Below the pieces are notes generated by a model that saw nothing but the letters and a program-made list of their open reading frames with translations, was not told the origin of the DNA and made no database searches. Source: Escherichia coli (GTDB lineage: Bacteria > Pseudomonadota > Gammaproteobacteria > Enterobacterales > Enterobacteriaceae). From it: 64,000 bases of DNA. Below, one piece after another: positions 15,001-33,063 of this stretch (position 1 is its first letter; each line of letters starts with the position of its first letter). Made by a program: the position numbers and the translations under genes. The stretch lies in NCBI RefSeq assembly GCF_001677475.2, contig NZ_CP015229.1; one strand, 5' to 3'.

Positions 15001-17724
15001 GACGACACTACGCCGTTGCTGAACGGCGTGCTCTCCGGCCCGCTTGCCAGCGGTGAAGTGGTTTACCTCTACCGTAACGGCCTGCTGTTAGGTGCGGTGA
15101 CGATGGTAGGCGCACTGAACTGGACCTACAGCGACAGCGGGCTGGTGAGCGGTGCCTACACCTACAGTGCGCGAGTGGTGGATCTGGCGGGGAATATCAC
15201 CTCCTCCAGTGATTTTGTCCTGACGGTCGATACCTCTATTCCAACCACGCTGGCGCAAATTACCAGCCAGACCACGCGCGATACCACGCCGATTATCAGC
15301 GGGGTGATCACGGCGGCACTCGCCAGCGGGCAGTATGTTGAAGTGGTGATCAACGGCAAAACTTACACTTCGCAGCCAGGCGGCGCGGTGGTGGTCGATC
15401 CGGCGCACAACACCTGGTATGTGCAACTGCCGGATACCGACACGCTGGCGGCGTCTGCGACCGCCTATAACGTCACCGCGCAGGTAAAAAGCTCGGCGGG
15501 CAACGGCAACACCGCCAACGTCAGCACTGGCACGGTAACGGTCAACGCGGCGATTGATTACACTCCGACCTGGACCACCGCCAGCAAATCTACCGCCTGG
15601 GGGCTGACCTACGGCCTCGACACGCACGGGATGTGGACGGTGCTGGCAAACCAGCAGGTAATGCAATCGACTGACCCACTCACCTGGTCGAAGACCGCGC
15701 TGACGCTGTATCAGAGCGGCAACAACTACGCCACCAGCTCCATCGCCGATTACGACCGTAACGGCACGGGCGATCTGTTTATCACCCGTGATGACTACGG
15801 TACAGGCTATATCAACGGCTTTACCAATAACGGCGACGGCACCTTTTCCAGCGCTATTCAGGTCACCGTCGGCACGCTGACGTGGTACGGCTCGATTGTG
15901 GCATTTGATAAAGAGGGCGACGGCTATCTCGACTTCTGGATTGGCGACGCGGGCGGGCCGGACTCTAACACCTTCTTGTGGAATAACGCAGGCACGCTGG
16001 TAGGCAACTCCACCACGTCGAACAGCGGCGGTAGCGCTACGGTGGGCGGGACGGTGACGGGGTATCTTTCGCTTAACGAAGGTTCCGGCGTCGATCTTAA
16101 TAATGACGGCAGGATTGACCTGGTTCAGCACACCTTCAACCTGAACAACTATTACACGCTGTCGTCGCTCATCAACCAGGGGAATGGCACGTTTGTCTGG
16201 GGGCAGAACACCATTAACACCTTCCTCAGCACGGCGGGCAGCGGTGGTAACTCGACGTCTGTCTCCATGACCTGGGCCGATTTCGATGGTGATGGCGATA
16301 TGGATCTCTTCCTGCCAGCCAGCCAGGGAAGAGCTAACTACGGCTCCCTGTTATTCAACACCAACGGCGTGCTGGGCAGTCCGGTGGCGGTGGGGGCTAC
16401 GGCAACCACCTACGCCAGCCAGTTTAGCGTGGCGGTGGACTGGAACCACGACGGCCTGATGGATATCGCCCGTATCGCCCAGACCGGACAATCGTATCTT
16501 TACACCAACGTTGGTGGTGCCAGCAACTGGACGCAATCAACCCTCGGCGGTAGCCAGAGCGGCACCACCAGTGGCGTGGCGGCAATGGACTACGACTGGG
16601 ACGGCGCGGTGGATGTACTGGTAACCAAACAGTCGGGCAGCGTGTTCCTGATCCGCAACACCAACACGGTGAGCTACGGCACTTCGCTGCACCTGCGCAT
16701 CACCGATCCCAACGGCATTAACGTCTATTACGGCAATACCGTGAAGCTGTACAACTCGGCGGGGGTGCTGGTCGCCACGCAAATCATTAACCCGCAGTCG
16801 GGGATGGGGGTTAACGATACCTCGGCGCTGGTCAACTTCTACGGGCTGAATGCCGGGGAAACCTACAACGCGGTGCTGATCAAATCCACCGGCACCACAG
16901 CCAGCAATATCGACCAGACGGTCAACACCAGCTGGGGCGGCTTACAGGCCACCGATGCCACCCACGCTTACGATCTCAGCGCCGAAGCGGGTACCGCGAG
17001 CAACAACGGCAAGTTCGTCGGCACCGGTTATAACGACACCTTCTTTGCCACCGCAGGCACCGATACCTACGACGGTTCCGGCGGCTGGGTGTACAGCTCC
17101 GGCACCGGAACGTGGCTTGCGAACGGCGGTATGGACGTGGTTGATTTCCGCCTCTCGACGGTGGGCGTGACCGCGAACTTAAGCAGCACCGCCGCGCAGG
17201 CTACTGGCTTTAACACCTCGACATTTACCAATATCGAAGGCATTTCCGGCTCGAATTTTAACGACACTCTGACCGGCAGCAGCGGCGATAACCAACTGGA
17301 AGGGCGCGGCGGCAACGACACCCTTAACATCGGAAACGGCGGTCACGATACCTTGCTCTATAAACTGCTCAACGCCAGTGACGCTACCGGCGGCAACGGC
17401 TCAGACGTGGTGAATGGCTTTACGGTAGGGACATGGGAAGGCACCGCCGACACCGATCGCATTGATATCCGCGAGTTGTTACAGGGCAGCGGCTACACCG
17501 GCAACGGCAAAGCCAGCTACGTCAACGGCGTGGCAACGCTGGATGCGCAGGCCGGGAACATCGGTGATTTTGTCAAAGTCACCCAGAGCGGCAGCGACAC
17601 CATCGTGCAGATCGACCGCGACGGCACGGGCGGCACTTTTGCGGCAACTAACGTGGTCACGCTGACGGGCGTGCATACCGACCTCGCCACTTTGCTGGCG
17701 AATCATCAGTTGATGGTGGTGTAG
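1..17724 (+). CDS. Giant type I-secreted Ig-like repeat adhesin (SiiE/BapA/LapA-like), 5'-partial; at least 5907 aa in window
   Basis: Frame 1 is open from base 1 to TAG at 17722-17724, so the true start is upstream. About 100-aa Ig-like repeats with recurring xDDxINAxExG motifs; C-terminal FG-GAP/VCBS-like D-x-D-G-D repeats, RTX-type glycine-rich nonapeptides (GRGGNDTLN, GNGGHDTLL) and a D-V-V-N-G-F ... D-R-I-D-I tail typical of T1SS C-terminal secretion domains; T1SS ABC and MFP genes follow immediately. Confidence 0.9.
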   Translation, partial: TTVQAGLSWSVSVPEADIQALGNGDLTVNASVTNQNGNTGSGTRDITIDANLPGLRVDTVAGDDVVNIIEHGQALVITGSSSGLAEGTPLTVTINNVEYTTAVQADGSWSVGVTAAQVSTWPAGTVNIAVSGESSAGNSVSITHPVTVDLTPAAITINTIATDDVINAAEKGANLTLSGTTTNVEPGQTVTVTFGGKNYTASVASDGSWTATVPAADLAALPEGSASAQASVSNINGNSASAVHNYSVDSSAPTIIINTVASDNIVNASEADAGVTVSGSTTAEAGQIVTVTLNSPTVQTYQATVQADGSWSINIPAADLEALTDGSHTLTATVNDKAGNPASTTHNLAVDLTVPVLTINTIAGDDIINAAEHGQALVISGSSTGGEAGDVVTVTLNSKTYTTTLDASGNWSVGVPAADVTALGSGPQTVTATVTDAAGNNDSETHTVTVNLTAPTIGINTIATDDIINATEKGLDLQITGTSNQPAGTTITVTLNGQNYTATTDAAGNWSTTVPASAVGALGEASYTVTANVTDSAGNSNSASHNVQVNTALPGVTINPVASDDIINAAESGVAQTISGQVTGAAAGDTVTVTLGGKTYTATVQGNLSWSVDVPAADIQAIGNGDLTVNASVTNGVGNTGSGSRDITIDANLPGLRVDTVAGDDVVNSIEHGQALVITGSSNGLAAGAALTVVINNVTYGATVLADGTWSVGVPATNVGNWPAGTVNITVSGATSAGNPVTITHPVTVDLAAVAISINTVSGDDVINAAEKGADLTLSGSTSGVEAGQTVTVTFGGKTYTATVAGDGSWTTSVPAADLAALRDGDATVQASVSTINGNTASATHAYSVDATAPTLAINTIATDDILNAAEAGNPLTISGSSTAEAGQTVTVTLNGVTYSGTVQADGSWSVSVPTADLSNLTASQYTVSASVNDKAGNPASTTHGLAVDLTVPVLTINTVSGDDIINAAEHGQALVISGSSTGGEAGDVITVTLNSKTYTTTLDASGNWSVGVPLSDVTALGSGPHTITAAITDAAGNSDDASRTVTVNLTAPTIGINTIATDDVINATEKGADLQITGTSNQPAGTTITVTLNGQNYTATTDASGNWNATVPASAVSALGEANYTVTANVTDTAGNSNSASHNVLVNSALPAVTINAVATDDIINDAESGNAQTISGQVTGAAAGDTVTITLGGNTYTATVQANLSWSVSVPAADIQAIGNGSLTVNASVTNVVGNTGNGSRDITIDANLPGLRVDTVAGDDVINSIEHNQALVITGSSSGLTVGTALTVVINNVTYGATVLADGTWNLGVPAADVSNWPAGTVDIMVSGTNSAGTTSTITHPVTVDLAAVAITINTLSGDDVINAVEKGETLVVSGSTSGVEAGQTVTVTFGGKNYTTTVEANGSWTVNVPPADLAALPDGAGNVQASVSNINGNNAQADRAYSVDATAPLVTINTIASDDTLNVSEAGAGITISGTTTAQAGQTLTVTLNNNTYQTTVLADGTWSVNVPASDLSGLTASSYTVTATVSDKAGNPASADHALAVDVTAPDLTINTVAGDDIINAIEHGQALVVSGTSTGAAAGDVVTVNLNGKNYTTTLDASGNWSVGIPAADVTALATGSQTITASLSDRAGNSDSTTHDVIVDLSGPTLTINTVSGDDIINNTEKTQDLTISGGSSGLATGTTVTVMLNGLAYSATTDGSGNWSITVPASAVGALGEAVYSISASATDSAGNNGSTTHTVNVESLLPGVIINTVAGDDIINAAEIVVAQTISGQVTGTAVAGNTVIVTIGGNQYTATVQPDLSWSVSVPANVLQALGNGELTISASVTNGVGNTGTATHDIVIDANLPGLRVDTVAGDDVINSIEHTQALVVTGSSTGLAAGAALTVVINSVTYGATVLADGTWSVGVPAADVTNWPAGTVNIAVSGTNTAGTTTSITHPVTVDLAAVAITINTLSTDDVINAAEKGSDLQLSGTTSDVEAGQTITVIFGGKSYTTTVATGGTWGLTIPAADLATLPDGAANVQASVSSVAGNIAQATHVYSVDATAPSVTINTIASDDILNAAEAGSALTISGTSTAEAGQTVTVTLNGVNYSGNVQADGSWSVSVPTGDLANLTASPYTVSAAVSDKAGNPASATHNLTVDLAAPVVTINTVAGDDIINATEHGQAQIISGSATGATTGNTVSVTIGTTTYTTVLDANGNWSIGVPASVISALAQGDVTITATVTDSAGNSGTASHTVTVALGAPILSINTIAVDDIINATEKGADLAISGTSDQPAGTQVTVTLNGQNYTTTADASGNWSVTVPASRVSALGEASYTVTASATDTDGNSGSASHNVQVNTALPGVTISVVATDDIINAAEAGADQTISGQVTGAAAGDTVTVTLGGATYTATVQANFSWSVNVPASALQALGNGELTISASVTNSVGNTGNGTREITIDANLPGLRVDTVAGDDVVNIIEHGQALVITGSSSDLAAGSNVTLTINGQTYVAAVLADGSWSVGVPAADVSAWPAGTVTITASGNTTAGNPVSVTHPVTVDLTAVAVSINAITADDVINAAEKGAALTLSGSTSGVEAGQGVTVTFGGKTYTASVAANGYWSTTVPAADMAALRDGDASAQASVSNVNGNSATTTHAYSVDASAPTVTINTIAGDDILNAAEAGSALTITGSSTAEAGQTVTVTLNGENYTGTVQTDGSWSVSVPPADLSALTASNYTVNAAVSDKAGNPASVNHNLTVDTSVPVVTINTVAGDDVINATEHAQAQIISGSATGAATGSAVTVTIGTNTFTTVLDASGNWSVGVPASVVSALANGTVTINASVTDAAGNSGSATHQVTVNTGLPSITFNAISGDNVLNADEKGQPLTISGSSTGLATGAQVTVTLNGHNYSATTDAAGNWTLTVPVSDLAALGQANYTVSASATSAAGNTASSQANLLVDSGLPGVTINTVAGDDIINAAEAGADQTISGVVTRAAAGDTVTVTLGGNTYTTTVQGNLSWSISVPAADLQALGNGDLTINASVTNANGNTGSGTRDITIDANLPGLRVDTVAGDDIVNSIEHGQALVITGGSSGLNAGVPLTITINGTVYSATVQADGSWSVGIPAANVSAWPAGALTIDVTGQSSAGNSVSVSHPFTVDLTAVAISINTIASDDVINAAEKGTGLTLSGSTSGIESGQTVTVTFGGKTYTASVAANGSWSVTVPAADLATLPDGAANVQASVSSASGNSASATHAYSVDASVPTLTINTIASDDILNATEAGSPLTISGTSTAETGQTVTVTLNGAIYTGTVQADGSWSVSVPTSALGALSASNYTVSATVNDKAGNPGSASHNLAVDTTAPVLTINTVAGDDIINDAEHAQALVISGTSTGGEAGDVVSVVLNGKTYTTTLDASGNWSVGVPAADVAALGSGAQTITASVSDRAGNSDDASRTVTVSLSAPVISINTIAGDDVINATEKGSDLALSGTSDQPAGTAITVTLNGQNYSATTDASGNWSVTVPASAVSALGEATYSVTASVTNAQGNSSTASHNVQVNTALPGVTINPVATDDIINAAEAGSAQTLSGQVTGAAAGSTVTVELGGKTYTATVQADLSWNVSVPASDWQALGNGELTVNASVTNAVGNTGSGTRDITIDASLPGLRVDTVAGDDVVNIIEHSQAQVITGSSSGFAAGTALTVVINNQTYAATVLANGSWSVGVPATDVSNWPAGTLNITVSGANSAGTQTSITHPLTVDLTTVAISINAITPDDVINAAEKGAALTLSGSTSGVEAGQTVTITFGGKTYTTTVAANGSWSTTVPAADLAALRDGDASAQVRVTNVNGNSATATHEYSVDSAVPTVTINTIASDNIINASEAAAGVTVSGTSTAETGQTLTVTLNGTNYQTTVQADGSWSLTLPASDLTVLANNGYTLTATVSDQAGNPGSASKGVTVDTTAPVISFNTVAGDDVINNVEHTQAQIISGTATGAVAGDRLVVTIAGQQYVTSTDASGNWSVGVPASVISGLADGTVTISATVTDSAGNSSTQTHNVQVNTAAVSLSVSTISGDNLINAAEAGSALTLSGTGTNFATGTVVTVLLNGKGYSATIQSNGSWSVNVPAADVAALADGTSYTVSASAQDSAGNSATASRSVAVDLTAPVININTVSTDDRLNAAEQQQPLTLNGSTSAEVGQTVTVTFGGKTYTATVAANGTWALNVPAADLAALGQGAQTITASVNDRAGNPGQTTHALTVDTVAPTVTIATVAGDDIINNVEQLAGQIISGTTTAEVGQTVTVTFNGQSWTATVGSGGSWSVFIPAQQFAGLSDGSYTISASVSDQAGNPGSASRGVTLNGDVPTVTINTFAGDDVVNAAEHGSSLVISGTTTAPVGQTLTLTLNGKTYTTTVQTGGSWSYTLGSADVTALADGNAYVINASVSNAIGNTGSSNHTITVDLSAPAMGINIDSLQADTGLSASDFITSVSPVVVNGSLTAALASNETAQISIDGGVTWTTLTVTGTTWRYNDSRTLTDGNYLYQVRVIDAAGNVGATDSQNVVIDTTAPDPAVKTIAISAITTDTGLITNDFVTSDTTLAVSGTLGAALSAGEFAQISIDGGTTWQNLSVSGLTWTYLDGRTLSDGNYNYQVRVIDTAGNIGATASQIVTVDTTAPLASKTIVIAGISDDTGLSSSDFVTRDTTLTVRGTLGATLAADERAQISLDGGVTWTTLTVIGTSWSYADGRTLTDGTWNYTVRVVDLAGNIGQTATQNVVVDTTSPEAAKSITITGISDDTGASSSDFITSDTTLTVRGVLGAALGANEFAQISTDNGATWVNVTVAADGLNWSYVDGRTLTNGTTTWQVRVVDLAGNVGATGSQSAQIDTVNPAQVLTIASISTDTGSSATDFITSDTTLTLTGSLGAGLASGEVAQISLDGGATWITLTTNGTQWTYTDGRTLTDGSYVYQVRVLDQAGNIGPVVSKTVVVDTINPTATPTIVSYTDDVGQRQGTLSSSQATDDTTPLLNGVLSGPLASGEVVYLYRNGLLLGAVTMVGALNWTYSDSGLVSGAYTYSARVVDLAGNITSSSDFVLTVDTSIPTTLAQITSQTTRDTTPIISGVITAALASGQYVEVVINGKTYTSQPGGAVVVDPAHNTWYVQLPDTDTLAASATAYNVTAQVKSSAGNGNTANVSTGTVTVNAAIDYTPTWTTASKSTAWGLTYGLDTHGMWTVLANQQVMQSTDPLTWSKTALTLYQSGNNYATSSIADYDRNGTGDLFITRDDYGTGYINGFTNNGDGTFSSAIQVTVGTLTWYGSIVAFDKEGDGYLDFWIGDAGGPDSNTFLWNNAGTLVGNSTTSNSGGSATVGGTVTGYLSLNEGSGVDLNNDGRIDLVQHTFNLNNYYTLSSLINQGNGTFVWGQNTINTFLSTAGSGGNSTSVSMTWADFDGDGDMDLFLPASQGRANYGSLLFNTNGVLGSPVAVGATATTYASQFSVAVDWNHDGLMDIARIAQTGQSYLYTNVGGASNWTQSTLGGSQSGTTSGVAAMDYDWDGAVDVLVTKQSGSVFLIRNTNTVSYGTSLHLRITDPNGINVYYGNTVKLYNSAGVLVATQIINPQSGMGVNDTSALVNFYGLNAGETYNAVLIKSTGTTASNIDQTVNTSWGGLQATDATHAYDLSAEAGTASNNGKFVGTGYNDTFFATAGTDTYDGSGGWVYSSGTGTWLANGGMDVVDFRLSTVGVTANLSSTAAQATGFNTSTFTNIEGISGSNFNDTLTGSSGDNQLEGRGGNDTLNIGNGGHDTLLYKLLNASDATGGNGSDVVNGFTVGTWEGTADTDRIDIRELLQGSGYTGNGKASYVNGVATLDAQAGNIGDFVKVTQSGSDTIVQIDRDGTGGTFAATNVVTLTGVHTDLATLLANHQLMVV
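16..12600 (+). repeat. Tandem ~1.8 kb super-repeats (six Ig-like domains per unit) inside the adhesin gene, about 7 units in window
   Basis: The motif GLSWSVSVP...IQALGNG...LPGLRVDTVAGDDVVN recurs at nt ~19, 1820, 3614, 5414, 7208, 9003 and 10798 with high but imperfect nucleotide identity. Confidence 0.85.
13320..14900 (+). repeat. Second repeat class in the adhesin: ~105-aa domains (DTGxSxSDFxTSD...AQISxDGGxTW...YQVRVxDxAGN), 5 canonical copies plus 2 divergent ones up to ~15300
   Basis: Copies start near 13330, 13640, 13965, 14285 and 14600, period ~320 bp. Confidence 0.8.
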
Positions 17725-17727
17725 AGA

Positions 17728-19890
17728 ATGAAAAAAAATGCCCAGTCCGTGGAAGCCTGGCTGGAGGCGATGATCGCCGTGGCGCGTTATTACCGCCTTG
17801 ATTTTTCTCAGGAGAACGTGCGCGCAACCGTCAACTGGGAGCGCGACAGTAAGCGGGAAGAGTTGCTCACCGATATGGCGCGGCAACTGGGAATGGGGTT
17901 ACGGCTGGTGGAGTTTTCCGCCGATTCGCTTAACCCGTGGCGACTGCCGTTGATCGCCGTGTTTGATAATCAGCAGATTGGCGTGATCACCCGCCGCGAT
18001 AACCACGACAATATCAGCGTTCAGTTCAGCGGTGACGAAGGGCTGGAAACCACGCTTAACGTCGCGGATATTGAAGATAAAATCGTCGAACTGGCGCTAC
18101 TGCGCCCGCTCAGCGCCATCCCCGACGCGCGCGTGGATGACTATATTCGCCCGTATCAGGCGAACTGGTTCTGGAATCTGTCGCTGAAAGACTGGCGGCG
18201 CTATGGCGACATTATGCTGGCCTCGCTGGTGGCGAACGTGCTGGCGCTGGCGGCGATGATTTTCTCGATGCAGGTTTACGACCGCGTCGTTCCGGCGCAG
18301 TCGTACCCGACGCTATGGGTGCTGTTCGCCGGGGTGATGATGGCGATCCTGTTTGAGTTCTGTATGCGCATGGTGCGCACGCACCTTTCCGATGTGATCG
18401 GCAAGCGGGCGGATCTGCGCATTTCGGATCGCGTTTTTGGTCATGCGCTACGGCTGAAAAACAACGTGCGATCGAAATCCACCGGATCGTTTATCTCGCA
18501 GATCCGCGAGCTGGAATCGGTGCGGGAGCTTATTACTTCCACCACCATCGGCGCGGTGGCGGATCTGCCGTTCTTCCTGCTGTTTGTCTTTATTTTGTGG
18601 ATGATCGGCGGCTGGCTGGTGCTGGTTGTTTTGCTGGCGCTGCCGTTATTAGTGATCCCCGGCCTGCTGGTGCAACGCCCGCTGGCGCGGCTGGCGAACG
18701 AAGGAATGCGTGAGTCGGCGGTACGTAACGCGACGCTGGTGGAAGCCGTGCAGTCGATTGAAGACATTAAACTGCTGCGCGCTGAACAGCGTTTTCAGAA
18801 TCAGTGGAATCACACTAACGACGTGGCCTCGTCCATCAGCATGAAGCAACGTTTTCTCACCGGGCTACTGCTCACCTGGACCCAGGAAGTGCAATCCATC
18901 GTCTACGTGGTGGTGCTGTTGGTGGGCTGCTTTATGGTGATGAACGGCGACATGACCACCGGTGCGCTGGTCGGGACGACGATCCTGGCTTCGCGCACCA
19001 TCGCGCCGCTGTCGCAGATATCCGGCGTGCTCTCGCGCTGGCAGCAGGCGAAAGTGGCGCGTAACGGCCTCGATGAACTGATGAAGCGCCCGGTGGATCA
19101 ACCGGAACACGGCAAACTGGTGCATAAAGCAGTGCTGCACGGCAATTATCAGTTCAGCAACGCGGTGTTTTATTACGACGAAGAAGAGAAGATTGCCGAT
19201 GTGGCGATTGGCAAACTTAACATTCAGGCGGGTGAGAAAATCGCCATTCTTGGGCGCAACGGCGCGGGTAAATCGACGCTACTGCAAATGCTCGCCGGAA
19301 TGCGTATCGCCCAGCAGGGGCAGGTGCTGCTGGATAACATCAGCATCGGGCAGCTTGATCCGGCGGATCTGCGCCGCGACATGGGGCTGCTCAGCCAGAC
19401 CGGGCGACTGTTCTTCGGTTCGCTGCGGGAAAACCTCACTATGGGGATGCCGGAAGCCAGCGATGAAGATATCGAACGCGCATTAATCCTCAGCGGGGCG
19501 CTGCCCTTTGTGCAGAAGCAGAAAAACGGCCTCAACTACATGATTCAGGAAGGGGGATTTGGTCTTTCTGGCGGTCAGCGGCAAACGCTGCTGCTGGCGC
19601 GGCTACTTATCTCTCAACCCAATATCGTGCTGCTCGATGAACCCAGCGCCTCGCTGGATGAAATGGCAGAAGCGTATTTAATTGAACAACTAAAACAATG
19701 GGTTGGGCATCGCACGCTGGTCATCGCTACTCACCGCACGGCGATGCTGCAACTGGTGGACAGGATCATCGTGATGGATCAGGGGCGGATTGTGATGGAT
19801 GGCGCGAAAGAGGCCATTTTGCGTGAACAGGGCGAACCCACGACGCGACGGGTGGTGTTGCAGGAGAAGAATAAGGGGTCTGCCGCATGA
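17728..19890 (+). CDS. Type I secretion system ABC transporter, HlyB/LapB-like (ATPase plus permease, N-terminal C39-like domain)
   Basis: 720 aa; Walker A GRNGAGKST, ABC signature LSGGQRQ, Walker B LLDEPSASLD, hydrophobic TM segments in the middle. ATG lies 3 nt after the adhesin stop. Confidence 0.9.
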   Translation: MKKNAQSVEAWLEAMIAVARYYRLDFSQENVRATVNWERDSKREELLTDMARQLGMGLRLVEFSADSLNPWRLPLIAVFDNQQIGVITRRDNHDNISVQFSGDEGLETTLNVADIEDKIVELALLRPLSAIPDARVDDYIRPYQANWFWNLSLKDWRRYGDIMLASLVANVLALAAMIFSMQVYDRVVPAQSYPTLWVLFAGVMMAILFEFCMRMVRTHLSDVIGKRADLRISDRVFGHALRLKNNVRSKSTGSFISQIRELESVRELITSTTIGAVADLPFFLLFVFILWMIGGWLVLVVLLALPLLVIPGLLVQRPLARLANEGMRESAVRNATLVEAVQSIEDIKLLRAEQRFQNQWNHTNDVASSISMKQRFLTGLLLTWTQEVQSIVYVVVLLVGCFMVMNGDMTTGALVGTTILASRTIAPLSQISGVLSRWQQAKVARNGLDELMKRPVDQPEHGKLVHKAVLHGNYQFSNAVFYYDEEEKIADVAIGKLNIQAGEKIAILGRNGAGKSTLLQMLAGMRIAQQGQVLLDNISIGQLDPADLRRDMGLLSQTGRLFFGSLRENLTMGMPEASDEDIERALILSGALPFVQKQKNGLNYMIQEGGFGLSGGQRQTLLLARLLISQPNIVLLDEPSASLDEMAEAYLIEQLKQWVGHRTLVIATHRTAMLQLVDRIIVMDQGRIVMDGAKEAILREQGEPTTRRVVLQEKNKGSAA

Positions 19891-21062
19891 ATGGACAACT
19901 GCAATACAACCGTGGCCTGACTGAACCCCGCCTGCCGCGTTCGGCGCTGGCGGTACGCGTTACCGCTGTGATGCTGCTCTGTTTTCTCGGCTGGGCGTGG
20001 TACTTCCAGCTTGATGAAGTCACCACCGGCAGCGGCACGGTAGAACCTTCCGGGCGCGAACAGGTGGTGCAGTCGCTGGAAGGCGGAATTCTGTATCATC
20101 TCGACGTCAAGGTTGGCGATATTGTTGAACAGGGCCAGCCGCTGGCGCAGCTTAACCGCACCAAAACGGAATCCGACGTCCAGGAAGCAATGTCGCGGCT
20201 GTACGCGGCGCTGGCAACCTCGGCGCGGCTGCGGGCGGAAGTGAGTAATAAACCGCTGGTCTTCCCTGACGAACTGAATAAATTCCCCGAACTTATCGAG
20301 TCGGAAACGGCGTTGTACAACACTCGCCGCGATGGGCTGAACAAAGCCACCACCGGGCTGACGCAGGGGATTAGCCTGGTCAACCGCGAACTGGCGATGA
20401 CCCAGCCGCTGGTAAAACAGGGGGCGGCGAGCAGCGTCGAAGTGCTGCGCCTGCAACGCCAGGCCAATGAACTGGAAAACAAACTTAGCGACGTACGTAC
20501 GCAATATTACGTTCAGGCGCGCGAAGAGTTAGCGAAAGCCAATGCGGAAGTGGAAACCCAGCGTTCGGTGATCCGTGGACGGGAAGACTCCCTCACCAGG
20601 CTCAACTTTACTGCGCCAGTTCGTGGCATTGTTCAGGATATTGATGTCACCACAGTTGGCGGCGTCATTGCCCCCGGTGGTAAACTGATGACCATCGTGC
20701 CGCTGGATGAGCAACTGCTGATTGAGGCAAAAATCTCCCCGCGCGATGTGGCGTTTATCCATCCGGGGCAAAAATCGCTGGTGAAAATAACCGCTTACGA
20801 TTACTCCATTTATGGCGGTCTGCCGGGAGAAGTGGCGGTGATTTCACCAGATACCGTGCAGGATGAAGTGCGGCGCGATGTTTATTACTATCGGGTGTAC
20901 ATTCGCACTTTCAGCAACCATCTGGAAAACAAAAGCAAACAGCAGTTTCCGATATTTCCCGGTATGGTGGCGACGGTCGATATCCGCACCGGCAAAAAGA
21001 GCGTGCTGGATTATCTGTTGAAACCCTTTAATAAAGCACAGGAGGCGTTGCGCGAACGATGA
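19887..21062 (+). CDS. Type I secretion membrane fusion protein (HlyD family periplasmic adaptor)
   Basis: 391 aa; N-terminal TM segment, long coiled-coil region, C-terminal beta domain; 4-bp ATGA overlap with the ABC gene stop. Confidence 0.85.
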
Positions 21063-21466
21063 ACATTAGCGATGTAGCAAAAATTACCGGCCTGACCAGC
21101 AAAGCAATCCGCTTCTATGAAGAGAAGGGGCTGGTGACGCCGCCGATGCGCAGCGAAAATGGTTATCGCACCTACACGCAGCAGCATCTCAACGAACTGA
21201 CCTTACTGCGCCAGGCGCGCCAGGTGGGCTTTAACCTGGAAGAGAGCGGCGAACTGGTGAATCTGTTTAACGACCCGCAGCGCCACAGTGCTGATGTAAA
21301 ACGGCGCACGCTGGAGAAGGTGGCGGAGATCGAGCGACATATCGAAGAACTGCAATCCATGCGCAACCAGCTGTTGGCGCTGGCGAATGCCTGCCCTGGC
21401 GATGACAGCGCCGACTGCCCGATTATCGAAAATCTCTCCGGCTGCTGTCATCATCGGGCGGGGTGA
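21059..21466 (+). CDS. cueR: Copper-responsive MerR-family regulator CueR
   Basis: 135 aa; N-terminal MerR HTH ([25 protein letters not shown]) and C-terminal CxxxxxxxxC metal site ([10 protein letters not shown]); matches E. coli CueR as I recall it. ATG overlaps the HlyD-like stop (ATGA). Confidence 0.93.
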
Positions 21467-21469
21467 AAA

Positions 21470-21673
21470 TCAGTTAATCCCCGTTTGCACCGAAAGAATA
21501 TGCTGCAAACTTTCTACCATTATGCGCCCCGATTGAAATAAGCCTTCCTGGATTTCATTGTTAACATTCACAGCGTGAACCAGGGAGGCTAATAACACCA
21601 CTTGCAAGAAGGCAAAAATAAACGCACCGATAATCATAATATGCGTCAGGGGGATTTTCCTTTGCTCCTTCAT
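21470..21673 (-). CDS. Small hydrophobic membrane protein (67 aa), hypothetical
   Basis: One predicted TM helix (IMIIGAFIFAFLQVVLLASLV); start overlaps the upstream lipoprotein gene stop (ATGA); stop lies 3 nt from the convergent cueR stop. Confidence 0.45.
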   Translation of the reverse strand: MKEQRKIPLTHIMIIGAFIFAFLQVVLLASLVHAVNVNNEIQEGLFQSGRIMVESLQHILSVQTGIN

Positions 21674-22092
21674 TTTAAATAACCCACAAACTGACCTTCC
21701 TTCATTAAGGCGACTTTTCCCGTGTGGTGATAAACAATGACGTTATAAAGACCTGACTGATAAACAGTGGCATCTTTATTGTCTTCATCAATTGCACATA
21801 ATGAATCATTGAGATAAGCAAAGTTCTTACTGCTCATTCTAAAGGTCATGCCAAATCCTTTATAAATGGCTTTCTTTGCCGCCTGGGCATGTTGTGCGGC
21901 TTCTGCATTTTTAAATGCCTGCGCCTCGGATGCACTTAAAATAGCCGTCTGACGCTGTTGTTCTGCGAGATAACAGGTGTCATGGCTGACGCCCTGCGCC
22001 TGGCAATCTGCGATGCGGGAAGTGGGTGAACTACAGCCAGCCAGTAATATAACCGCCAGCAGGGAAAACGATTTAATGGAACTATTCATCAT
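21670..22092 (-). CDS. Putative lipoprotein (140 aa), hypothetical
   Basis: Signal peptide with lipobox LLAGC; co-directional with and downstream of the YadA-anchor gene. Confidence 0.6.
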   Translation of the reverse strand: MMNSSIKSFSLLAVILLAGCSSPTSRIADCQAQGVSHDTCYLAEQQRQTAILSASEAQAFKNAEAAQHAQAAKKAIYKGFGMTFRMSSKNFAYLNDSLCAIDEDNKDATVYQSGLYNVIVYHHTGKVALMKEGQFVGYLK

Positions 22093-22177
22093 TGTTAACC
22101 TTAAATAATGTACAAATTAATGAAGAGGTGAAACCCGGCAAGCTTCCTTGCTCTTATTTATATTGAGGATTGGAATA

Positions 22178-23194
22178 TTAGAAAGAATATCCCACGCCGA
22201 CACCCGCGCCGAAATCAGATTGCGTATCCGCAGAGACACCGGCTTTAATCACGGTATGCGTTCCGGCATTAAAAGATGTTCCTACAGACACCGCAGATTC
22301 ACCGTTGAACGTTCCCGCTCCCGCTGACACCATCATCAAGTCACCGGTTTTCACCTGTGGTTGTGAGGCGATAGCGATGGCAGATGCAGTTCCCGCATTG
22401 GCTTCTTTACGATTGTCCTCAACTTCGTTTTTCAGAGAATCGAAATGGTTATTGAGCGTGTTAATTTGTTGGCTGTTATCTGCGACCCGTTTTTGCGTGT
22501 TGGTTAACTGTTGCTGCGTTTGTGCGGAATCTTGTCTCAGACTTTCAATTTGCTCATGTGCCTGGACAGACTTCTGCGCCAGACTTTGCATTTGTTTATC
22601 GTATTGAGCCCTTTCTTTTTGCTGTTGTGCTGCCACATCGGTTGTCAGTGCATTCATTTTCTGCCCTTGTTCCGTGGTAGTGCGCTGAATAGCCTCATTT
22701 TGAGCCGCCAGTCTGGCATTAATCATCTCCTGATAATGCGCAGTATTTTGCGTATCTCCAGTCGCGGCGAGCGTTTTTTGTGTGGCTACGATCTGCGCCT
22801 GTTGCTCTGTAATTTGCGTTTGCTGGGCATCAGTTACCGCAGACTGTCGGGCGTTGATCATGCTCTGATAACGGGCTGGTGTCTGTGCATCACCTGTAGC
22901 GGCAACGGTTTTTTGTCCTGCGTCAGGATCTGTCTGGACAGTGGGAGTCTGAGTGGTATCAGGTGTTTCAGAAGGGATGTAGTGATGTTCAGTCAAATAG
23001 GTATACGCAGCGGGGCTGTTGTCTGTGCGTTCTAAAAAGCGGGTAATCTTCTGCTCAATCTCCGATTGCGACATGCCAGAGTTAATGGCTGAAAGCTCTG
23101 TTGCCGCCGCTTCAATGGTATCACCAGCTAAAACAACAGGGCTGGATGTTGCTGAAATTATGAGTGCCAGTAAAGCTACGTTTACAGTTTTCAT
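22178..23194 (-). CDS. Short trimeric-autotransporter-like protein with YadA-type C-terminal membrane anchor and Q-rich coiled-coil stalk, no recognisable head domain
   Basis: 338 aa; N-terminal signal peptide; last ~75 aa (AGTASAIAIASQPQVKTGDLMMVSAGAGTFNGESAVSVGTSFNAGTHTVIKAGVSADTQSDFGAGVGVGYSF) fit the YadA anchor pattern (G/A-rich entry helix, four beta strands, terminal aromatic); internal ~45-aa duplication in the stalk. Confidence 0.7.
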   Translation of the reverse strand: MKTVNVALLALIISATSSPVVLAGDTIEAAATELSAINSGMSQSEIEQKITRFLERTDNSPAAYTYLTEHHYIPSETPDTTQTPTVQTDPDAGQKTVAATGDAQTPARYQSMINARQSAVTDAQQTQITEQQAQIVATQKTLAATGDTQNTAHYQEMINARLAAQNEAIQRTTTEQGQKMNALTTDVAAQQQKERAQYDKQMQSLAQKSVQAHEQIESLRQDSAQTQQQLTNTQKRVADNSQQINTLNNHFDSLKNEVEDNRKEANAGTASAIAIASQPQVKTGDLMMVSAGAGTFNGESAVSVGTSFNAGTHTVIKAGVSADTQSDFGAGVGVGYSF

Positions 23195-23357
23195 TCATTT
23201 TCTCTTGTTCAAAATAAGTCGCACTAATGTTTCTATAAGAAACAAATAATATTATTTTAAGAAATAAACTACGTTGCAATTTAATCGAAATTTACGCCGC
23301 CATTTGTGTGATGTAAAGCGCATTTTTGTCTGGTGTAAGCGTAAACACCATCAATAA

Positions 23358-23382
23358 GAAACAAAAATGGTTTCTTATATAA
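23358..23382. promoter_or_regulatory. Perfect inverted repeat ATAAGAAAC-N7-GTTTCTTAT in the divergent promoter region; candidate operator
   Basis: Read directly from sequence; a partial copy TAAGAAACAAA occurs near 23236. Confidence 0.35.
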
Positions 23383-23560
23383 ATAAAAAAGGAAATCATT
23401 TCGTGCTCTTTCAATGTAAAAAAGAGTAAAGGCTTGTTTTGATAAGCGAAATAAATTCTGTTTCTGGACTAAACGTGAACCGGTTCCTGATGTGTGTTAA
23501 AATGCGTTTCTTTGATAAATCTCAATTTTTAAGAGGTTTACGCCAGGCAGGAAAATTTAA

Positions 23561-23923
23561 ATGAATGAATTTGAGAAGATTTTTAATGAAATGAATCTGG
23601 ACCGGGCATTGCTACCGATCCTTTTTCGTTCGAACCGGTCAACAGTGTGGAAATATTTAAGTGGCGATAGTACGGCTCCTGCCTCAGCTATGTCACTGAT
23701 TATGCTGTTGCAGTTAATCCAGAAACGAAACCCCGATCTGTTAGCCGAATGGTTAACGCTTTCTGATTTCACCATTCCGCCAGAAGTTTACCTGGACCAG
23801 CCTGATTACTGGAAAGGGTGGGTGTATACGCAACACAAGGTCAATAAAAACGTCCTGGAATATCTAAAAAAACATTATCCGGATGAAGACCAAAAAAACA
23901 TGAATAAAGGTAGTGACGAGTAA
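23561..23923 (+). CDS. Hypothetical protein (120 aa), possible small DNA-binding regulator
   Basis: ORF divergent from the YadA-anchor gene across a 366-bp AT-rich spacer; no confident family assignment from sequence alone. Confidence 0.4.
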   Translation: MNEFEKIFNEMNLDRALLPILFRSNRSTVWKYLSGDSTAPASAMSLIMLLQLIQKRNPDLLAEWLTLSDFTIPPEVYLDQPDYWKGWVYTQHKVNKNVLEYLKKHYPDEDQKNMNKGSDE

Positions 23924-23949
23924 TTTGCCAATGCCAGTTAATATAGCGG

Positions 23950-24107
<158 letters not shown>

Positions 24108-32685: not shown

Positions 32686-32741
32686 CCAACTGTCATGTCG
32701 GTTTTTTTAAAGGCCGAAGGTGGTAAACCTTCGGCCTTAGC
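32686..32741. terminator. Terminator module of repeat copy 1: stem CCAAC/GTCGG plus T-tract and adjacent GGCCGAAGG...CCTTCGGCC hairpin, immediately 3' of the minus-strand peptide ORF
   Basis: Palindromes read from sequence; the first hairpin is a one-mismatch copy of the terminator at 33162-33190. Confidence 0.5.
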
Positions 32742-32754
32742 TACGTTTCCTCAG

Positions 32755-32838
32755 TTATTCAATAAACTGACGGATCAGTTCCAGCAGCGCGATTAGCGCC
32801 TTAAGAACGATGAGAACTTTATCGAGAAAAGTTTTCAT
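32755..32838 (-). CDS. Candidate type I toxin: 27-aa hydrophobic single-helix peptide MKTFLDKVLIVLKALIALLELIRQFIE (DinQ/TisB-like)
   Basis: Hand-translated from the minus strand; not in the supplied ORF track. SD AAGGGAG 6 nt upstream lies inside the perfect palindrome CTCCCTTAAGGGAG (32845-32858); an in-frame upstream ATG at 32908-32910 would give 51 aa. Resembles E. coli DinQ (ALIALLELIR core) as I recall that sequence. Confidence 0.6.
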   Translation of the reverse strand: MKTFLDKVLIVLKALIALLELIRQFIE

Positions 32839-33063
32839 CCGTTGCTCCCTTAAGGGAGAAAGACAATCACAGCTTACCCTTACGTTGCCTGTAACTATGA
32901 TTTTCTTCATGTGCTAGATGAGGACTGCCTCTCTCCAAATTAGAGCACCAGAATCAGCACCACCTGTATCCTGACCAGGACTTAAAAGTACTTTTCCGCA
33001 CTGCGGTAATCCCTTGAGGCAGTATCACTACTAGCGTCGGGATTGTATCGCCAGCATAGCTGT

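Follow-up and report, generated by a model that had tools for sequence, protein, structure and literature searches.

An apparently channel-less type I secretion locus of Escherichia coli is the O-island 28 (siiEA) adhesin island cut by a window boundary

The window, the whole 64 kb (64,000-nt) stretch of Escherichia coli DNA analysed here, covers five-sixths, counted from the 3′ end, of a type I secretion (T1SS) island of four genes, O-island 28 or siiEA, whose own TolC-family gene would come first and lie just outside the window. We assign this reading a probability of about 0.93. In EHEC O157:H7 this locus is O-island 28, and NCBI annotation names it siiEA. As already published and annotated, this island for E. 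coli colonisation is a complete, dedicated T1SS adhesin island. The channel gene that appeared to be missing from it is an artefact of the window boundary. Within the window, the adhesin open reading frame is followed by an ABC gene, an HlyD-type adaptor gene and cueR:

1–17724, plus strand: siiEA (rtxA28/rtxB28 of O-island 28), the 3′ 5,907 codons of a giant T1SS adhesin, identified from a reading frame open from base 1 and from alignment
17404–17712, plus strand: type I secretion target domain at the adhesin C terminus, the secretion signal region (TIGR03661 T1SS_VCA0849)
17728–19890, plus strand: T1SS ABC permease/ATPase of 720 aa, the hlyB28 equivalent (TIGR03375, ABC_membrane, ABC_tran)
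19887–21062, plus strand: HlyD-family periplasmic adaptor (MFP) of 391 aa, the hlyD28 equivalent (TIGR01843, HlyD_3, HlyD_D23)
21059–21466, plus strand: cueR, Cu(I)-responsive MerR-family regulator (NF007590, 308 bits, above the cut-off)

A preliminary description of this DNA held that only ABC and MFP genes follow the adhesin, and the gene order agrees (17728–19890 and 19887–21062, then cueR). The ABC gene starts 3 nt past the adhesin stop at 17724, the ABC and adaptor genes share a 4-nt overlap (ATGA), and the junction sequence places the adaptor stop and the cueR start in a second 4-nt overlap (ATGA). cueR itself is a flanking core gene outside the secretion system. At the other end, the adhesin frame is open from the first base of the window, so that the gene is cut by the window start. 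When aligned to siiEA on the E. coli O158:H23 chromosome NZ_CP076709.1, base 1 of the window falls on nt 3055 of the gene, which is 20,778 nt long; this leaves about 1,018 N-terminal adhesin codons, the BapA_N domain included, outside the window. With its first base inside the adhesin gene, the window cannot hold the whole locus, which extends past it.

Downstream of the adhesin, positions 20457–64000 are collinear with NZ_CP076709.1 at 96.5–97.5% identity and free of insertions. In the NCBI annotation, the matching stretch begins with cueR and ends with the sfm fimbrial genes; it takes in a small YadA-like island, ybbJ, qmcA, fetAB, cnoX, ybbO, tesA, ybbAP and mnmH, and also includes the all/gcl/glx cluster, purKE, lpxH, ppiB, cysS and folD. 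No gene for an outer-membrane channel, a C93 protease or a GGDEF/EAL protein is annotated there, which confirms the literal observation made on the window, and across the whole 64 kb we found no gene for an outer-membrane channel, LapG or LapD.

The sequence upstream of the adhesin in relatives tells how the locus begins. On NZ_CP076709.1 the order is ybaT, a TolC-family outer membrane protein (OMP) gene, siiEA, ABC, HlyD adaptor and cueR, with a gap of 108 nt between the TolC-family gene and the gene for the 6,925-aa SiiEA; across every relative examined, the TolC-family gene lies 108–161 nt upstream of the adhesin start. Its product in NZ_CP076709.1 contains two Pfam OEP domains and scores 417 bits on TIGR01844 (cut-off 225), the model for TolC-family proteins of type I secretion. 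We rejected the possibility that it is a copy of housekeeping tolC, since NF007002, the model for housekeeping TolC, gives it just 68 bits against a cut-off of 495, and this marks it as a dedicated channel.

A query that joined the TolC gene to the 5′ end of the adhesin matched 958 of 5,426 complete E. coli genomes, O157:H7 genomes among them, once per genome, and every match is annotated as a TolC family OMP and, next in order, siiEA or an Ig-like protein. The adhesin is matched in 958 complete genomes and the ABC/MFP segment in 957–959 (coverage of at least 80%); with the three counts nearly equal, co-occurrence is essentially complete. The same adjacency of TolC and adhesin genes was recovered in all 14 further contigs found through two TolC protein variants, in one Escherichia whose flanks are only about 87% identical to those of E. 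coli, and in Enterobacter ludwigii. The suggestion of a T1SS locus without a channel gene is thus true of the window and is refuted for the locus, where an OMP gene directly adjoins the adhesin gene in all relatives (958/958 genomes and two distant relatives). The companion suggestion, that missing components lie upstream of the window, holds in relatives for the outer-membrane channel. LapG and LapD genes are lacking from the 19 kb that precede the TolC-family gene in NZ_CP076709.1.

We then considered the window's own lineage. The window itself is absent from the complete-genome collection, where identity to it reaches at best 96.6% for the locus and 97.9% for the gcl region. Positions 16500–21600 match E. 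coli siiEA, the T1SS permease/ATPase and the HlyD adaptor at 96.6% identity, as expected of orthologues, and the adhesin reading frame is 94.8% identical to siiEA of NZ_CP076709.1 in an alignment of about 22 kb. Within the repeat region, the allele has diverged by roughly 6–7% from common E. coli alleles. The right junction is that of O-island 28, with the MFP gene overlapping cueR and the downstream sequence collinear with E. coli. The exact ABC protein of the window occurs in two NCBI assemblies that are 99.98–99.995% identical to the window over 22 kb, and one of the two has an adhesin call of 6,925 aa, the length found in NZ_CP076709.1, with its BapA_N domain; a full-length adhesin with its N-terminal domain means that in that assembly the island is intact at its 5′ end. 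The look-ups with TolC variants returned lineages other than that of the window. From the 958/958 co-occurrence and the full-length adhesin call, we strongly infer that the window's own genome carries tolC28.

A different account would have this lineage lose tolC28, leaving a system that lacks a dedicated channel to recruit housekeeping TolC in the manner of HlyBD. Such a loss would fit a 64 kb window that holds no OMP gene, and HlyBD–TolC is an established E. coli precedent (PMC8277102); moreover, the channel gene of this lineage is reached by inference, as an exact 50-mer from the window start has no match in genome_contigs or metagenome_contigs. We nevertheless regard this account as very unlikely. 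TolC28 and the adhesin are found together in all 958 complete genomes, in every additional contig and in another genus, and the near-identical assembly with its 6,925-aa adhesin keeps the 5′ end of the island. Genetic data from O157:H7 bear on the same point: each single deletion of an O-island 28 gene, tolC28 included, reportedly reduces epithelial adherence and mouse colonisation, and complementation with the OMP, ABC and MFP genes restores the phenotype (PMC12758282). That deletion of tolC28 has a phenotype despite the presence of housekeeping tolC, and that complementation reverses it, leaves the idea of a borrowed chromosomal TolC, also raised in the preliminary description, unsupported (PMC12758282).

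The comparison with HlyBD is informative for the exporter as well. Like the siiEA locus, E. coli HlyBD–TolC combines an ABC protein bearing a non-catalytic C39-like domain, an HlyD-family adaptor, an uncleaved C-terminal signal and an RTX-type substrate. HlyBD, however, has no channel gene of its own and relies on housekeeping TolC, whereas the siiEA island has its own TIGR01844 channel gene, which heads the operon in all relatives. The exporters also differ, as the ABC protein of the siiEA locus is of the LssB type and falls below the cut-off of the HlyB model (TIGR01846, 387 bits against 726). It scores 835 bits on TIGR03375, the LssB-type T1SS permease/ATPase model (cut-off 693), and contains Pfam ABC_membrane and ABC_tran domains, as a T1SS-type exporter should. 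The first ~150 residues give a weak match to Peptidase_C39, below the cut-off, and show no evident match to the cysteine motif that C39 peptidases conserve. We read this region as a probable non-catalytic C39-like domain, such as HlyB-type exporters carry. The adaptor belongs to the HlyD family (TIGR01843 type_I_hlyD, 328 bits against a cut-off of 209).

The substrate carries the corresponding C-terminal features. TIGR03661 is matched at 33.9 bits (cut-off 17.6) over residues 1469–1571 of the translation of window positions 13000–17724, the extreme C terminus of the adhesin, and a HemolysinCabind repeat lies just upstream. With this domain and an RTX repeat, SiiEA has the makeup of a T1SS substrate with a C-terminal secretion domain. 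NCBI annotates the protein of about 6,925 aa as "BapA-related adhesin SiiEA" (NF047714). Its length is built from Big_13/Ca_tandemer Ig-like repeats together with FG-GAP_3 and the RTX repeat, and the repeats are homologous to the extender domains of MpAFP region II (PDB 4p99).

O-island 28 has been characterised genetically, with its genes named tolC28 (z0608), rtxA28 (z0609), rtxB28 (z0615), hlyB28 (z0634) and hlyD28 (z0635) (PMC12758282, 2025). RstA binds upstream of tolC28 and activates transcription, and extracellular Ca2+ raises expression of the island from the region upstream of tolC28 (PMC12758282). The window agrees with O-island 28 at the cueR side of its ybaT/cueR site, in gene order and in protein families, and the DNA is 94–97% identical to E. 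coli copies of the locus. Three differences are apparent. The adhesin is one unbroken frame in the window and two annotated genes (z0609 and z0615) in EDL933, the repeat region has diverged from common alleles as given above, and tolC28 and the 5′-most 3 kb of the adhesin gene, which belong to O-island 28, are outside the window.

These comparisons suggest a model for the complete island, in which the order would be ybaT, tolC28, siiEA (~6,925 aa), ABC, MFP and cueR. tolC28 would start the island about 3.2 kb to the left of the first base of the window, with the RstA-bound regulatory region upstream of it. Judging from the protein families, the ABC protein, which has a non-catalytic C39-like domain, would recognise the uncleaved C-terminal signal of the adhesin, while the HlyD adaptor would bridge to the dedicated TolC28 channel. 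The adhesin would then be threaded outward C terminus first, and its Ca2+-binding Ig-like repeats would fold outside the cell. It is probably held at the cell, as its beta-rich BapA_N domain and a conserved hydrophobic Gly-rich segment may be unable to pass the channel. The locus would encode no LapG/LapD proteolytic release module.

To our knowledge, no Lap system is known in E. coli. Neither the window nor the 19 kb (recR to ybaT) that lead up to the TolC-family gene of NZ_CP076709.1 contain a PF06035 or PF16448 gene, so that the reported absence of LapG and LapD extends past the window in this relative. The adhesin itself bears some resemblance to LapA. A published screen for LapA-like adhesins takes proteins of more than 1,000 aa with a [T/A/P]AA[G/V] motif within residues 70–150 and an RTX motif, and the accompanying definition also takes LapG (PF06035) and LapD (PF16448) in the genome (10.1101/2020.05.11.089839). 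On the adhesin side, the E. coli orthologue formally passes this screen, with 6,925 aa, TAAG at residues 97–100 and an RTX repeat. SiiEA could accordingly be proposed as a LapA-type adhesin in which a LapG-like periplasmic protease would control surface retention by cutting at TAAG, with the protease and a c-di-GMP receptor encoded elsewhere. This proposal draws on the formal screen (10.1101/2020.05.11.089839), on the fact that TAAG occurs only once in the 6,925 residues, and on a position similar to that of LapA 108AA109 and DvhA 106AA107 (PMC10990149).

The details of the site argue against cleavage by a LapG-like protease, and we consider this reading very unlikely. TAAG is absent from the Enterobacter, BFo2 symbiont and Apirhabdus homologues, and only 13 of 95 N termini in the family have a [T/A/P]AA[G/V] motif within residues 70–150, at scattered positions, which is roughly the rate expected from composition (~0.09 per protein). 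An AlphaFold model of the N terminus (pLDDT 83, with residues 1–120 mostly above 90) predicts a beta domain and places TAAG in a loop between strands 89–94 and 105–114, inside the folded domain and not after it. Known LapG substrates have a conserved cleavage site that follows the retention domain and is preceded by a targeting helix and a DP motif (PMC13090378). SiiEA shows no such arrangement: no targeting helix or DP motif precedes TAAG, where a strand, LTHVTFAD, is found instead. Since it is unconserved, occurs at a composition-level rate, sits in an in-domain loop and lacks the helix and DP motif, the SiiEA TAAG looks like chance. Nor did the window or the relative's 19 kb yield a PF06035 or PF16448 gene.

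How SiiEA would be retained and released without a Lap-type protease circuit is a matter on which the 2025 O-island 28 paper is silent, and it concerns the N terminus, which is outside the window. In the relative, this region is assigned to Pfam BapA_N and NCBIfam BapA prefix-like (PF22783/NF033677), and no solved structure gives a detectable match to the BapA_N sequence. Close homologues share an invariant PWGW..AGAAxGGGAxGALL segment, and more than 60 distant homologues contain a comparable hydrophobic Gly-rich segment; that of SiiEA spans residues 131–153. By analogy, plug-type retention as proposed for LapA is plausible for SiiEA, in sequence that falls outside the window. A broader proposal, which we find improbable as it stands, is that BapA_N-type giant adhesins are held by a non-Lap device, in which a beta-roll-like N-terminal plug and a strongly conserved hydrophobic PWGW-AGAAVGGGALGALLASGG Gly/Ala-rich segment would lodge in TolC28 or a membrane; release would proceed by a route other than LapG/LapD, possibly with a novel protease targeting the E. 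coli-specific TAAG. For a regulated release step there is evidence neither for nor against, and the relevant sequence is all outside the window.

The siiEA island can finally be placed among other giant-adhesin systems. Pseudomonas fluorescens LapA/LapEBC resembles it in having a dedicated TolC-like channel, a C39-like ABC protein and a giant repeat adhesin; the likeness of LapA to SiiEA is one of published description. In both adhesins a beta-rich N-terminal domain precedes a Gly-rich stretch, the layout expected of a channel-plugging retention module (PMC10990149). Unlike the Lap system, the siiEA locus lacks LapG/LapD genes, a conserved dialanine, a targeting helix and a DP motif.

The bapABCD T1SS locus of Salmonella enterica (SPI-9), which serves a biofilm adhesin, is also similar by domain models and description. 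The adhesin gene opens bapABCD and the OMP gene follows, whereas at the siiEA locus the OMP gene precedes the adhesin. We know of no LapG/LapD described for Salmonella bapABCD, and there is likewise none at the siiEA locus. Common to both are a TolC-like gene that adjoins the adhesin gene (PMC12153261) and an adhesin of giant size, built of Ig repeats, whose N-terminal domain is BapA prefix-like.

Salmonella SPI-4 (siiABCDEF), which shares the "sii" name, likewise encodes a giant Ca2+-binding Ig-repeat T1SS adhesin, SiiE, in an enteric bacterium and with a dedicated OMP, SiiC. SPI-4 differs in its SiiA/SiiB proton-channel accessory genes, which have no counterpart at the siiEA locus of NZ_CP076709.1. 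The N termini differ as well: that of SiiE is described as a coiled-coil plus a beta-sheet (PMC6272769), while SiiEA begins with BapA_N and is termed BapA-related by NCBI.

Escherichia coli genomes that lack the T1SS island (O-island 28/siiEA) carry a trace of it. Their match to the window begins at position 20963, within the 3′ end of the gene for the HlyD-family adaptor (MFP), and continues rightward. In the locus of one such genome (L025), a remnant of the same gene end is annotated as a pseudogene next to cueR.

Window 20963–21062, + strand: 3′ end of the MFP gene, matched in sequence by island-negative genomes.
L025 1502–1599: annotated MFP 3′-end pseudogene remnant, 98 nt, between ybaT and cueR.
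Window 21059–21466, + strand: cueR.
Window 21470–24100: low-GC mini-island (~43.5% GC), between cueR and ybbJ.
Window 22178–23194, minus strand: YadA-anchor trimeric autotransporter, 338 aa, within the mini-island.
Window ~32700–32900: predicted position of a dinQ-like type I toxin gene, by collinearity with an annotated E. coli record (L024).

Together, the 98-nt remnant and the match from 20963 suggest deletion as the origin of the island-negative, K-12-like state. They also suggest that the sequence upstream of cueR comes from the MFP gene. cueR itself is ~94% identical to the window in island-negative genomes, versus 96–97% in island-positive ones. In the window, the MFP stop codon and the cueR start codon overlap in an ATGA (21059–21062), and a search of the + strand found no promoter-like site just upstream of cueR. 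Given the start/stop overlap, this copper regulator could share a transcript with the adhesin operon, for which RstA and Ca2+ are the reported activators, or be coupled to it in translation.

The adhesin gene (siiEA, window 1–17724) has a GC content of 59–62%, versus ~50% in the flanking core genes, and its repeats are ~72–77% identical among themselves at the DNA level, as seen in secondary alignment matches. Whereas EDL933 has been described with two RTX genes, z0609 and z0615 (PMC12758282), the adhesin in the window is a single uninterrupted frame. The gene is fragmented in several assemblies, and the two adhesins of that report may be one split gene.

Beyond cueR, the mini-island holds three or four small hypothetical genes in addition to the autotransporter. 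It was not present in the one island-negative genome inspected. At ≥80% coverage it occurs in 1,386 complete genomes and is thus commoner than the T1SS island; judged by these counts, the two vary independently. A short element upstream of ybbJ (~23950–24090), with a median of 25 matches per E. coli genome, looks like a dispersed repeat of the REP/BIME type. Further along, the annotation of the collinear record places the dinQ-like gene (L024 12267–12422) between ybbP and mnmH.

Among 5,426 complete RefSeq E. coli genomes, the best identity to the core genes of the window is only 97.5–97.9%, which on sequence grounds places the source of the window in an Escherichia lineage without a representative in that set. 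Two draft assemblies, GCA_016118615.1 and GCA_018682865.1, are near-identical to the window.
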